64,000 nucleotides of DNA, from IMG/VR virus record IMGVR_UViG_3300008448_011290; one strand, written 5' to 3'. This stretch comes from a virus. Below the pieces are notes generated by a model, which saw nothing but the letters and a program-made list of their open reading frames with translations, searched no databases and was not told where the DNA came from. Made by a program: the position numbers and the translations under genes. Shown here one piece after another: positions 50,955 through 54,583 of this stretch; position 1 is the first letter of the stretch; every line of letters begins with the position of its first letter.

Positions 50955-51992
50955 CTAGCTCAGTGATTGCTCGTAGAGCTGTTGAGCAGCTAGATTCTTC
51001 CATTTAGCTTCGACTTGAATATCAAAATTATCCAAGAAAGTCAATGCCCAAGCATTAGCAGTTCTATTAGGTAATAGATCTGAATGAGATCTTAATTTCT
51101 GTTTCTTACAACCTAATAATAATAAGTCCTTGATATTATGCAAACCACTGTGCATCTTTTCAGGATGATCTCGGTAAGCGGGCAACAATTCTTCATCACG
51201 GAAATAAGAATAATGCAGAGTAGGACGTGTGCCACGCCATGAATCAATCACTCGTTTGACTCTATCATCATTTGCTTGTATGTATTCTTCGTCTCTGATC
51301 AGATGATGATGTATGTCTAATACCAGTGCCACATGCTTCTCTAATTTAAGTGTGGCATCCAAACCCCAGCCCATTTCATCATTTTCTATGGTGATAAGAT
51401 TGCGTGCTTCGGGTGATAATCTAGGCAGAGCTTTAATAATACCTTCTGTACCTTGACGACCGGATATGTGTACATTAATTTTACAACCATCTTGAAACTT
51501 ACGACCAAAACCCATCCAGCGTGCCATATTAACATGATATTCAAACTCATCAATACTTCTGCGTACTATATCTTCAGATTCTGAAGCCAACACTGTGAAT
51601 TGTCCTGGATGGAAAGATACTTTAACATCTAGTCGACGAGCTAACTCGCCCACTTCAGCAAAATGCTTTTCACAATACCGTACAATATCCTGTGAATCTA
51701 TATAGTATCGCCATGTCGCTTCTGTGGCCATTGGCAGCACAGGAGATCCTAATCGTACCATTCGTCTTTCGGGTGGCAGTGATCCTACATGTGACACAAG
51801 TTTTTTCAGTGATTCTATGTTGTGTCTCACCACTGAATCTAATTTCTCTTCTGCTTGATCACGATGCTCATTCAGCCAACGCACTGTAGTAGCTTTGGTA
51901 TTAAAGGGTCTTTGAATTTCTTCCAGTTGTTTCTTGCTGAGAGTCTGATCAGTATGATACCATTGACAGCAGAAACCTATACGTTTCGTCAT
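50955..51992 (-). CDS. uvsE: UV-damage endonuclease
   Basis: IGFCC, SFHPGQF.VLAS, NVHISG, IENDE, LDIHHH, RSHSD, VEAK.K. Confidence 0.92.
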   Translation of the reverse strand: MTKRIGFCCQWYHTDQTLSKKQLEEIQRPFNTKATTVRWLNEHRDQAEEKLDSVVRHNIESLKKLVSHVGSLPPERRMVRLGSPVLPMATEATWRYYIDSQDIVRYCEKHFAEVGELARRLDVKVSFHPGQFTVLASESEDIVRRSIDEFEYHVNMARWMGFGRKFQDGCKINVHISGRQGTEGIIKALPRLSPEARNLITIENDEMGWGLDATLKLEKHVALVLDIHHHLIRDEEYIQANDDRVKRVIDSWRGTRPTLHYSYFRDEELLPAYRDHPEKMHSGLHNIKDLLLLGCKKQKLRSHSDLLPNRTANAWALTFLDNFDIQVEAKWKNLAAQQLYEQSLS

Positions 51993-51998
51993 GTGTTA

Positions 51999-52026
51999 AT
52001 TGTAACACATTATTGCCAATTGTCAA
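51999..52026 (-). promoter_or_regulatory. Sigma70-type promoter TTGACA-N16-TACAAT, leaderless
   Basis: 6 nt to ATG 51992. Confidence 0.7.
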
Positions 52027-52708
52027 CAACGAAAGGATCTCCTGAATTGAATGGTTTTGGTTCTCCATGGAATACTGCTACCATATTATTATCTGTGATT
52101 GCGGGAGCATGTTCGAATACTTTTTTATTACCTTTATTAATTGGCCTAGCATTGCGAGGCATCATTTCCCATTTATAGCTACGAATCCATTCGTCGGGCC
52201 AATGATTTATATCCTTTGCTGCTCTTTTAGTAATCCAATCTTGATCTCCATGATTGTTACGCATTACACTGCCAGGATCTCGAGCAAATTCTGTCCAAAG
52301 ATAATCCAACTGTCCGGTCTTCCAACGCATCACAGAGGAGTTGCTGAGTTTCCAATCTGATACTCTACATCTGTTAAAATCTCTTATGATCATGAACTGT
52401 TCAAGATTGTGAGAGAATAATCTATCTATGTTCTTGAATATTACAACATCTAAATCAAAATATAATACAGTGCCTTGTATGGGTAATTCTGGAGAGAACA
52501 TATACAGTTTACTCCACCAAGTTTTAATGCCTGGATGTACAGGTAAGGTTATTATTTTAATATCTGCATCTAATCCTTGAGGATCCTCTGTGAGACAATG
52601 AAATTCAAATGGCACAGCAATGTGCCGGCGACACATATTTTTTAGAACATTAACGTATTGGCTGGTATATTTGTTGCCCCATTTAACACATAGCACATGA
52701 TTAGGCAT
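52010..52708 (-). CDS. GT-A fold glycosyltransferase
   Basis: CVKWG.KY, WWSKL, YFDLD (DxD), NSSVM, GDQ, FHG.PKP. Confidence 0.8.
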   Translation of the reverse strand: MPNHVLCVKWGNKYTSQYVNVLKNMCRRHIAVPFEFHCLTEDPQGLDADIKIITLPVHPGIKTWWSKLYMFSPELPIQGTVLYFDLDVVIFKNIDRLFSHNLEQFMIIRDFNRCRVSDWKLSNSSVMRWKTGQLDYLWTEFARDPGSVMRNNHGDQDWITKRAAKDINHWPDEWIRSYKWEMMPRNARPINKGNKKVFEHAPAITDNNMVAVFHGEPKPFNSGDPFVVDNWQ

Positions 52709-53861
52709 TGTTTTTGCTCCAATCATATCCTGGTCGAAGGAAATCTATTTGCATTTGTTTATAGTTATCATCACTCCACACATAATCAAAAGTGCCCGTC
52801 ACACCATCTGCATGAATTTGATGGATATCTAGATGCGCGGATAACTTTTTTAATATCACTGCAAAATCTTCCGTGCCAAAACTCTTCTCGAGATTGACCT
52901 GCCCTATCTTAATATAGCCTAGACTCAATTTAGGATCATTATAATTCATACCATTTCGAGTCAACCATTCACGAAATGCTCTTTGTTCTCGAGCATGCCA
53001 TTCATGATTCTGTTCGTTGATATTTCTACCCCATTCTATATCAAATTCTCCAGAATAAAACTTTAAACTGTTAATAGCAGAGCAAGTGGCAGCATCAATA
53101 TCTGCTCCATTCTCATCACGAAATACTTCAAACTGTGTTTTGCCCACCTGCGCCCAATGTAGATATACTCCTCCTAACTCTCTATCATATCTAGTTTTTA
53201 AAAATAATTCATAATCTTTATCTTGTAAATCCTGTCTAGGAGCGTTGAGGAATGTGGTTATCTGTGAAGGTCTTTGCCACTCTGGTTCATATGTTTTCTT
53301 TCTATTGGATAGTACCCAAGATTCTAATTCATGACATAGATCATTCAGCTGACGTATAGCCCATTTGGTATCATAATCAGCCAGTTTATAATAACGACTA
53401 ATGTTCCAAGTTTCACCTTGTAAATCTTCAAAATATCGATGCAACCTATTCATGGGTTCATGATTTAATCTTAAACCAGGTTTTCCGTTGCCCACTTCGC
53501 CTGATTGTATTACAGATTCTGGAGAGAAATAATCATTGATATGATAAGAAGGCAGTCCTGCTACTCCCCAATAGTTTGTGGAATTAAAACAATTGATTTG
53601 AAATATGGCTTGATTTATTTGTCGACATAGATATTCAGCATTTCGAGGCGAATCAGCCCAGCCTAACCAACAGTAATTTTTTTCTAAATGTAGATTATTT
53701 TTAAGATTTTGTTTGAGTAATTCAAGCCAACGCAGATTAAAATCCGTAGATTCAATGTCGATAAAATAAGATAGAGTATCTGTTTTATCTTCAGGATTCC
53801 TTAATACTATTTCAATCTCTTTGATAGATTGCACTGTTTGCTCCATGTTCTCGACATTCAA
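52701..53861 (-). CDS. Hypothetical protein (start uncertain)
   Basis: Long ORF; N.LHRYFEDL.G, LNDLCHELE, LHWAQVGK. Confidence 0.65.
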   Translation of the reverse strand: MNVENMEQTVQSIKEIEIVLRNPEDKTDTLSYFIDIESTDFNLRWLELLKQNLKNNLHLEKNYCWLGWADSPRNAEYLCRQINQAIFQINCFNSTNYWGVAGLPSYHINDYFSPESVIQSGEVGNGKPGLRLNHEPMNRLHRYFEDLQGETWNISRYYKLADYDTKWAIRQLNDLCHELESWVLSNRKKTYEPEWQRPSQITTFLNAPRQDLQDKDYELFLKTRYDRELGGVYLHWAQVGKTQFEVFRDENGADIDAATCSAINSLKFYSGEFDIEWGRNINEQNHEWHAREQRAFREWLTRNGMNYNDPKLSLGYIKIGQVNLEKSFGTEDFAVILKKLSAHLDIHQIHADGVTGTFDYVWSDDNYKQMQIDFLRPGYDWSKNNA

Positions 53862-54258
53862 CGGAATCTAACCATACTCTGCCACCGCTGCTCTGTTCTA
53901 TGATCTTACTTACATGGTTGTACACATACTCAGCAAATTTCTCACAACCTACTGCAGGCAGCACTCTAACGTCTGCAATCTTGCCATCCAACAGCATGAT
54001 TGTTTGAAATTCTGGATCATCCTCTGCAATACAAAGTGTGTGATCAAATTGCTTTTTTAACCAAGCCTTGATATCTTTTAATCCTCCAAAGTCCTGCACC
54101 CAGTTTCGATCATCCAGTGTGGTAGCACCAAATACAAATTTAAATGCCAGTGAGTAACCGTGTATTAATTGGCAATGTGAGTGTGTGGCTTTCCATTGAC
54201 GGAATGCACAACTTAAACCTTCTGTGTGGTCGTATGTTTTTGTTGAGTAGTATGTCAT
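53812..54258 (-). CDS. queD: 6-carboxy-5,6,7,8-tetrahydropterin synthase
   Basis: HSHCQLIHGY, WV.DFG.LK, FDH, GCEKFA, ECREH.ANSA. Confidence 0.92.
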   Translation of the reverse strand: MTYYSTKTYDHTEGLSCAFRQWKATHSHCQLIHGYSLAFKFVFGATTLDDRNWVQDFGGLKDIKAWLKKQFDHTLCIAEDDPEFQTIMLLDGKIADVRVLPAVGCEKFAEYVYNHVSKIIEQSSGGRVWLDSVECREHGANSAIYQRD

Positions 54259-54265
54259 TGTTTTT

Positions 54266-54321
54266 CTCCTGTTATGACATGCAGAATATTTAGAGTGGGA
54301 ATGAATGTCTTAAAGTCCACT
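54266..54321 (-). ncRNA. Candidate cis-regulatory H-type pseudoknot (preQ1-I-like riboswitch variant) in the queD leader
   Basis: P1 AGUGG(54321-17)/CCACU(54298-94); P2 GACAU(54309-05)/AUGUC(54280-76); SD AGGAG 54270-66. Confidence 0.45.
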
Positions 54322-54334
54322 GTGCTTAATTATG

Positions 54335-54583
54335 TTAGTGTAACGTACTGCCAGCAATTTTGTCAATCTCTAAAGTGTCGGCCAATTCGGCTATTCTATC
54401 AGAGAGATGATTGGGTATTTCCATTTTGCCATCGATTATAGCTTTTAAGAAATGTACCAATACCACAAACTCTGGAGTTTTACTTAGAGCTTCTGGATCC
54501 ATACCATGTTTTTCCATAGCACTCAATAATGCTTCTGTGGCATCCATTAAACAACTAATACTTTGTTCGTGTTTTTTTAACAT
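54335..54583 (-). CDS. Hypothetical protein
   Basis: Preceded by TTGACA-N16-TACAAT (54590-54617), 6 nt before the ATG. Confidence 0.6.
   Translation of the reverse strand: MLKKHEQSISCLMDATEALLSAMEKHGMDPEALSKTPEFVVLVHFLKAIIDGKMEIPNHLSDRIAELADTLEIDKIAGSTLH

Follow-up and report, generated by a model that had tools for sequence, protein, structure and literature searches.

We examined a 64,000-nucleotide stretch of DNA from an uncultured virus (IMG/VR record IMGVR_UViG_3300008448_011290; hereafter the window) to determine whether the leader of a queD-like gene on its minus strand contains a structured regulatory RNA. The window is tightly packed, with nearly all genes running on one strand, and encodes a T4-type DNA polymerase (phrog_262), a clamp-loader-like AAA protein, PhoH, ClpB-like and DnaJ-like proteins, and a CHASE2 cyclase, among other genes. 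The polymerase is closest to those of the jumbo phages Sinorhizobium phage Phosso (49% identity) and Agrobacterium phage Atu_ph07 (46%). Related contigs are rated 10-47% complete at 44-172 kb, and homologues of a neighbouring gene lie on contigs of up to 336 kb. The window therefore derives from an uncultured jumbo myovirus. A 76-nt gap separates the stop of an upstream 82-aa ORF (54335-54337) from the ATG (54256-54258) of the queD-like gene, and the minus strand from 54321 to 54256 reads AGTGG-ACTTTAA-GACAT-TCATTC-CCACT-CTAAATATTCTGC-ATGTC-ATAAC-AGGAG-AAAAACA-ATG. The features of the locus, all on the minus strand, are as follows.

54335-54583 (-): 82-aa ORF with no family match, ending 13 nt before P1; its last codons (..L-H-stop) coincide with the conserved TACACT -10-like box, and in relatives the stop lies only 2-4 nt from P1.
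54337-54366 (-): sigma-70-like promoter, TTGACA-18 nt-TACACT (10 of 12 consensus matches), inside the end of the 82-aa ORF; a start about 7 nt after the -10 box would lie about 8 nt 5' of P1.
54317-54321 (-): P1 5' strand, AGUGG.
54310-54316 (-): L1, ACUUUAA.
54302-54309 (-): P2 5' strand, GACAU (P2b, 54309-54305), an unpaired U, then CA (P2a, 54303-54302).
54299-54301 (-): L2, UUC, with an invariant C at 54299 directly 5' of the P1 3' strand.
54294-54298 (-): P1 3' strand, CCACU.
54284-54293 (-): L3, CUAAAUAUUC (family consensus NUAAANANUC), which contains the TAAATA box.
54276-54283 (-): P2 3' strand, UG (P2a, 54283-54282), an unpaired C, then AUGUC (P2b, 54280-54276).
54274-54280 (-): 5' arm of the alternative hairpin, AUGUCAU (the P2b 3' strand plus AU).
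54266-54270 (-): Shine-Dalgarno (SD) sequence AGGAG, in the loop of the alternative hairpin.
54252-54258 (-): 3' arm of the alternative hairpin, AUGACAU (the start codon plus 4 nt).
53812-54258 (-): queD-like PTPS-family gene (148 aa).
52701-53846 (-): 381-aa protein of unknown function, overlapping the end of queD by about 35 nt and probably co-transcribed.
52010-52726 (-): predicted GT-A fold glycosyltransferase resembling GT8, a recurrent partner of motif-bearing queD genes.
50955-51992 (-): UvdE UV-damage endonuclease, a recurrent member of the same gene string.

The queD-like product belongs to Pfam PTPS (PF01242, E 1e-16) and to PHROG 2389, 'QueD-like 6-pyruvoyl-tetrahydropterin synthase' (phrog_2389, E 2e-40), but remains below the NCBIfam QueD equivalog cut-off. 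The leader carries two perfect 5-bp helices that interlock as an H-type pseudoknot, with P2 ending 5 nt before the SD. The observation made in the original prediction is thus confirmed to the letter. As a single sequence, however, the leader is not special, since its nested fold energy is ordinary (z = -0.16 against shuffles), and its significance had to be established by comparison.

QueD relatives in IMG/VR carry the same leader, and a pattern scan that fixed only loop bases and the two G-C pairs at the top of P1 yielded 110 stretches. Because a MAFFT alignment (A1) placed the L2 gap inside P1, it was replaced by ungapped alignments (A2 and A3). Covariation of the two helices in related leaders had been named beforehand as a test of the structure. 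On 54 distinct ungapped leaders, 100% of 540 pair cells are standard pairs, four pairs change on both sides, 0 of 500 shuffles reach the covariation score, and slid registers pair in only 31-62% of cells. P2, which was entirely free in that pattern, appears as GACAU/AUGUC, GACUU/AAGUC, GACAA/UUGUC, GGCAU/AUGCC and GACGC/GUGUC, along with G-U intermediates. A second scan, aimed at a variant seen in one relative (locus L046), uncovered a larger and more varied ‘TCCGC’ subfamily. With both subfamilies on one ungapped 34-column alignment of 76 distinct leaders (A3), P2 in its extended form (pairs 1-5 with 30-34 and 7-8 with 27-28) is 92.3% paired, compared to 62.8% when shuffled and 22-48% when slid, and the three inner P2b pairs show 4-6 pair types each. 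The middle pair of P1, counted in 92 leaders chosen without asking for P1 complementarity, is A-U 64, U-A 27 and C-G 1, with no mismatch. An independent metagenome sample gave the same picture, with A-U 74, U-A 35 and one mismatch at this position. A P1-free pattern found no further P1 variants in IMG/VR. In total, about 230 distinct leaders from viral and metagenome contigs keep both helices with compensatory changes, although these counts include related sequences and the number of independent events is smaller.

P2 is longer than originally proposed. Following a U/C mismatch, two further pairs, C22-G42 and N23-N41, continue the helix (CA with UG in the window). The second of these is A-U whenever L3 ends UCUG and G-C whenever it ends UCCG. 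In IMG/VR the counts are 54 against 66 with no mixed case, although the A-U set was partly fixed by our first pattern. A metagenome scan that left both bases free gave A-U 71 and G-C 39 among 110 real leaders, and the single A/C combination was a chance hit lacking every other feature. This extension leaves an L2 of only 2-3 nt ending in an invariant C, the same place where preQ1-I carries its UC or AC with the specificity cytosine (PMC11625349). In the 120 IMG/VR leaders the L2 forms are AC 54, UC 46, UUC 9, CC 9, UCC 1 and AUC 1, while in the metagenome sample the base before the C is U 44, A 43, C 21 and G 2. L1 is 4-12 nt in the family and starts ACU in 110, UCU in 7 and AUG in 3 of the 120 leaders; CCU also occurs in metagenomes. 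Sixteen of the 34 core columns are invariant, even though the downstream QueD proteins fall to 26% identity and include both HGY-type and canonical CxxxHGH-type enzymes. A rare subtype (L046:2908-2961 and loci L192 and L257) has an L1 starting AUGGA and a small extra hairpin (ACUU..AAGU or ACUU..GGGU) inserted in the P2 3' strand between P2a and P2b.

The motif almost always sits in front of a PTPS/QueD-family gene. The first ORF behind it is a PTPS-family protein in 56 of 63 automatically called cases in IMG/VR; the other 7 look like mis-picks by our ORF caller, because the leaders of the TCCGC scan are followed by QueD-type N-termini. In the metagenome sample 91 of 92 distinct first ORFs are PTPS. 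The one exception, in locus L372 (850-2230, minus strand), comprises two copies of promoter plus leader lying 1.1 kb apart. The upstream copy keeps P1, L1, the P2 5' strand and L3 but has lost the P2 3' strand, and it precedes two small proteins with signal peptides, while the intact copy sits downstream, before queD. This arrangement looks like a moron cassette inserted with a duplicated promoter-leader. There is one copy of the motif per contig in the five large contigs tested, and a search with the model R1 found no second copy in the window.

To determine how widely the element is distributed, we scanned 185,579 bacterial and archaeal species genomes for the TCCGC core. This returned 12 hits, about the number expected by chance, none of which has P1 or P2 and all of which lie in coding sequence. 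A blastn search of the locus against 50,697 phage records matched only the queD coding part. Three motif-only queries against the same records gave chance 18-mers, and a hit in Vibrio phage pVp-1 turned out to be an AT-rich linker match. Five cultured phages, including Atu_ph07, Motura and BUCT-ZZ01, lack the core pattern; in four of them queD abuts its upstream gene and leaves no leader, while Motura has a 67-nt gap. So far the element is known only from uncultured phages.

Comparison with Rfam 15 by cmscan gave no preQ1-I, II or III match or any other relevant match, at E<=10 on 2.5 kb and on 106 nt of the window (where the filters are laxest) and on a TCCGC-type leader, or at gathering score on 11 loci. 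The only hits were chance hits to freshwater-2 and Mu-gpT-DE on the SD region and a weak one to c-di-GMP-II at 53814-53868 (minus strand; 19.7 bits against a gathering score of 53.5, E 0.81) inside the overlap of queD and the 381-aa gene, which we also take as chance. Full-text literature searches found no description of such a motif, and neither the Weinberg 224-motif paper nor the phage 7-deazaguanine paper mentions one.

The original prediction cautioned that TAAATA in L3 might simply be a late promoter. This caveat fails. In the family the box reads TAAA-N-A, with T, C, A or G at the fifth base, and a start inside L3 would exclude the two 5' strands that demonstrably covary. Instead, 57 of 66 TCCGC-type leaders have a 5/6 or better TATAAT box within 40 nt 5' of P1, in most of them ending 3-11 nt from it and often accompanied by TTGACA at 17 nt. 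The TTGACA-N18-TACACT arrangement of the window is kept in its relatives (loci L011-L017). Inferred from these consensus matches alone, the knot would sit at the very 5' end of the mRNA, and TAAATA would be loop sequence.

The 3' half of the knot is also complementary to the ribosome-binding site (RBS). RNAfold of the window leader keeps P1 but pairs AUGUCAU with AUGACAU, placing the SD in the loop and excluding P2. In 70 distinct leaders of the window's subtype this hairpin has 5-7 pairs. Its second position (P2 column 45) covaries both with its P2 partner and with the third base of the second codon (A-U 46, U-A 14, G-U 5, mismatch 5), and the metagenome sample repeats this. In the window that base (U, 54279) pairs either with A 54306 in P2 or with the third base of the Thr codon ACA, and in the main group all three are changed together (A with U, and ACU). 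Other subtypes use other partners: ACUCC, made of the P2 3' strand plus CC, pairs with the SD GGAGU; CCUC pairs with GAGG; and CUCC, at the L3/P2a border, pairs with GGAG. The sequestering partner thus differs between subtypes (AUG in some, SD in others), and the hairpins are only 4-8 bp. Pairing of the SD with the P1 3' strand or L2 was also examined and is not conserved; the window's CCACU cannot pair with AGGAG. The computed nested MFE fold pairs at least 3 RBS bases with the 3' part of the knot in 118 of 120 viral leaders and 88 of 102 metagenome leaders. The duplex energy of a leader's own pair is -8.0, compared to -6.2 across types and -5.3 shuffled; with one representative per type it is -6.78 against -5.81 (Wilcoxon p = 0.008), a significant but modest difference. 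In the window P1 is worth -3.7, P2 -3.4 and the alternative hairpin -4.9 kcal/mol, so the hairpin should win unless tertiary contacts or a ligand stabilise the knot.

The gene context does not settle the pathway. This QueD type is about 50% identical to QueD of cultured phages with full 7-deazaguanine clusters, such as Pseudomonas phage Iggy, the Rhizobium RHEph phages and Alteromonas phage R7M (PMC6884629; PMC10484667). Motif-bearing contigs, however, showed no QueC or TGT above the Pfam cut-offs, whereas FolE is present in 5 of 10 contigs, three times within 1-2.5 kb on the same strand as the motif. The one contig rated complete by CheckV (283 kb; locus L334, G006:C1:87900-93500) has FolE but no QueC, TGT or radical-SAM match anywhere, and its operon reads motif, queD, a 313-aa unknown, a phosphoribosyltransferase (PF00156), a 113-aa ORF and FolE. 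A phosphoribosyltransferase beside QueD and FolE also occurs in the cultured Synechococcus phage BUCT-ZZ01, which hints at a free-base to nucleotide route. A further context (locus L335, G008:C1:68500-74200) comprises FolE, two small ORFs, a cytidylyltransferase-like gene, the motif, queD, a 215-aa unknown, a DAO-type FAD oxidoreductase and a weak radical-SAM-like protein.

Elsewhere (the window and loci L196, L213, L223, L228, L242 and others) a recurrent gene string follows the motif. The queD-like gene is joined by the GT8-like glycosyltransferase (27 of 53 loci), then sometimes a PMM-like phosphomutase (7), then UvdE (19 of 53). The glycosyltransferase has a predicted GT-A fold (AlphaFold2 pLDDT 93), Foldseek hits to glycogenin, LgtC and alpha-1,3-galactosyltransferase at about E 1e-8, and invariant D91 and D93 flanking an invariant Leu, a DxD-type motif. 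A QueD-type enzyme linked to sugar transfer and UV-damage repair, rather than to QueC, QueE and DpdA, suggests an unknown pathway. The 381-aa protein has no Pfam, PHROG or NCBIfam hit and 5,960 homologues in metagenomes, none of them named; it was found only in the window's jumbo-phage subtype and not among the neighbours of the 53 TCCGC-type loci. Its AlphaFold2 model (pLDDT 77) has no Foldseek PDB match, and VIA-align gives only a borderline cyclophilin-like barrel with a helical insert (Z 8-10, about 140 residues aligned), with the Pictet-Spenglerases McbB and KslB among the hits.

Taken together, these results suggest that the leader has two mutually exclusive folds. In the first, a compact H-type pseudoknot combines a 5-bp P1, a two-part P2 (5 bp, a U/C mismatch, then 2 bp), a 2-3 nt L2 ending in the invariant C, and a 10-nt, A-rich L3 placed to run along the P1 minor groove. 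In the second, P1 is kept but the P2 3' strand pairs with the start-codon region instead. Most likely a small molecule binds at the P1/P2 junction and stabilises the knot, which would pull the P2 3' strand away from the start codon and switch on translation of queD and the genes behind it. Such a ligand would carry a guanine-like face, as a GTP-derived pterin or a 7-deazapurine does. The analysis itself establishes both helices, the conserved loops, the gene association, the complementarity of the knot's 3' half to the RBS and the promoter-like boxes 5' of P1; that a ligand exists, what it is, that it binds directly and alters expression, and the ON direction are inferences. We are all but certain that the pseudoknot is real and consider a cis-acting two-state translational switch likely, while a small-molecule trigger is only somewhat more likely than not. 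By analogy with preQ1-I (PMC11625349), an invariant unpaired C stacked on the G-C top of P1, next to an A-rich L3, would fit recognition of a 2-amino-4-oxo heterocycle such as guanine, a GTP-derived pterin or a 7-deazaguanine. Since ON control of a biosynthetic gene by a pathway product would be odd, a precursor or signal such as dihydroneopterin triphosphate, a purine or a damage-related base is easier to rationalise than the end product.

The interpretation given in the original prediction is therefore only partly supported. The pseudoknot is conserved with covariation in homologous queD leaders, resembles preQ1-I and is a good riboswitch candidate. It has two general features of a riboswitch, a conserved structured domain in a 5' leader with covariation and conserved unpaired bases, and a computed expression platform whose fold excludes that of the knot. 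The wiring, however, points to ON control rather than the proposed feedback by a pathway product, and the description of the gene as a dedicated deazaguanine-pathway enzyme is uncertain given the complete phage that has FolE but lacks QueC, radical-SAM and TGT matches.

The main rival is a protein-binding translational operator, in which the same two-state leader is read by the QueD-like enzyme, repressing or activating its own mRNA, or by a phage RNA-binding regulator. The element is known only from phages and almost always sits beside one gene family, the conserved loop bases could equally be protein contacts, and T4-like phages use translational operators. We consider this unlikely, however, as the RNA core stays nearly invariant while the adjacent QueD proteins diverge to about 26% identity, no other gene accompanies the motif everywhere, and the small size, junction-centred conservation and unpaired C at the preQ1-I specificity position are typical of metabolite pockets. 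Less likely still is a ligand-independent device that sets translation by temperature, co-transcriptional folding, mRNA stability, or ribosomes terminating on the upstream ORF. In the window's subtype an 82-87 aa ORF ends 2-13 nt before P1, so a terminating ribosome would melt P1, and all helices are short and marginally stable. Yet most TCCGC-type leaders appear to start at their own promoter with no upstream ORF next to them, and a pure thermometer or stability element does not need 16 invariant, mostly unpaired, positions.

An ordinary, divergent class I preQ1 riboswitch that binds preQ1 or preQ0 and represses queD is improbable. The element shares with preQ1-I (RF00522; types I-III, e.g. 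B. subtilis queC, T. tengcongensis, C. antarcticum and E. coli) the H-type topology, a 5-bp P1, an unpaired C directly 5' of the P1 3' strand and preceded by U, A or C, an A-rich L3 placed to line the P1 minor groove, and a position before a queuosine/7-deazaguanine-type gene (PMC11625349). AGAGG/CCUCU is also the B. subtilis P1. It differs in giving no covariance-model match, in an L1 that mostly starts with A rather than the conserved U or UU, in an L3 of 10 nt that ends in UC, in an SD that lies 5-25 nt 3' of P2 instead of overlapping it, and in a predicted ON logic, whereas every known preQ1 class is OFF. P2 has 7 pairs in two parts with an internal mismatch, about twice the usual 3-4 pairs. 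Finally, a T4-type late promoter or a DNA operator with an incidental RNA fold is very improbable: one relative (locus L108) does have a perfect TATAAATA, but the fifth base of the box varies and its commonest form is TATAAACA, a start inside L3 would leave out P1 and P2 5' strands that covary with their partners, and two interleaved repeats with 17- and 23-nt spacers do not suit a dimeric DNA binder.

Other systems offer partial parallels. The preQ1-II riboswitch (RF01054) is also a pseudoknot, one that senses a 7-deazaguanine, and the extra hairpin of the rare L046 subtype recalls its embedded P4 hairpin; it gives no model match here, however, buries the SD in the pocket floor, and is about 77 nt long with different conserved bases. 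In translational ON riboswitches such as the Vibrio vulnificus add adenine riboswitch, ligand-stabilised aptamer folding competes with a helix that sequesters the SD or AUG, so that binding releases the RBS, but add is a three-way junction purine aptamer whereas the candidate aptamer here is a pseudoknot. The T4 gene 32 mRNA leader pseudoknot likewise controls translation of the downstream gene from the 5' leader of a phage mRNA, but it works through cooperative binding of a protein and has no sequence or size similarity.

We judge it about as likely as not that the element is a phage-only, previously uncatalogued riboswitch class, built on a preQ1-I-like pseudoknot with a lengthened two-part P2, that senses a GTP-derived pterin, 7-deazapurine or purine metabolite and turns on translation of a phage QueD-type operon. 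If so, it would be the first ON-acting relative of the preQ1 riboswitches. Riboswitch classes confined to viruses are very rare, and this small aptamer of about 42-60 nt, abundant in uncultured aquatic phages, would combine a pocket architecture that looks like preQ1-I with the opposite output, adding a new ligand-RNA recognition case and a compact ON-switch part. Identifying its ligand would help to assign a function to the QueD-like gene string, which often lacks QueC, QueE and DpdA and travels instead with a glycosyltransferase and a UV-damage endonuclease, and the element itself would provide a handle on an unknown phage pathway made of QueD-like, GT8-like glycosyltransferase, PMM-like and UvdE genes. 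It would also show that phages meter their own 7-deazaguanine or pterin metabolism during infection.
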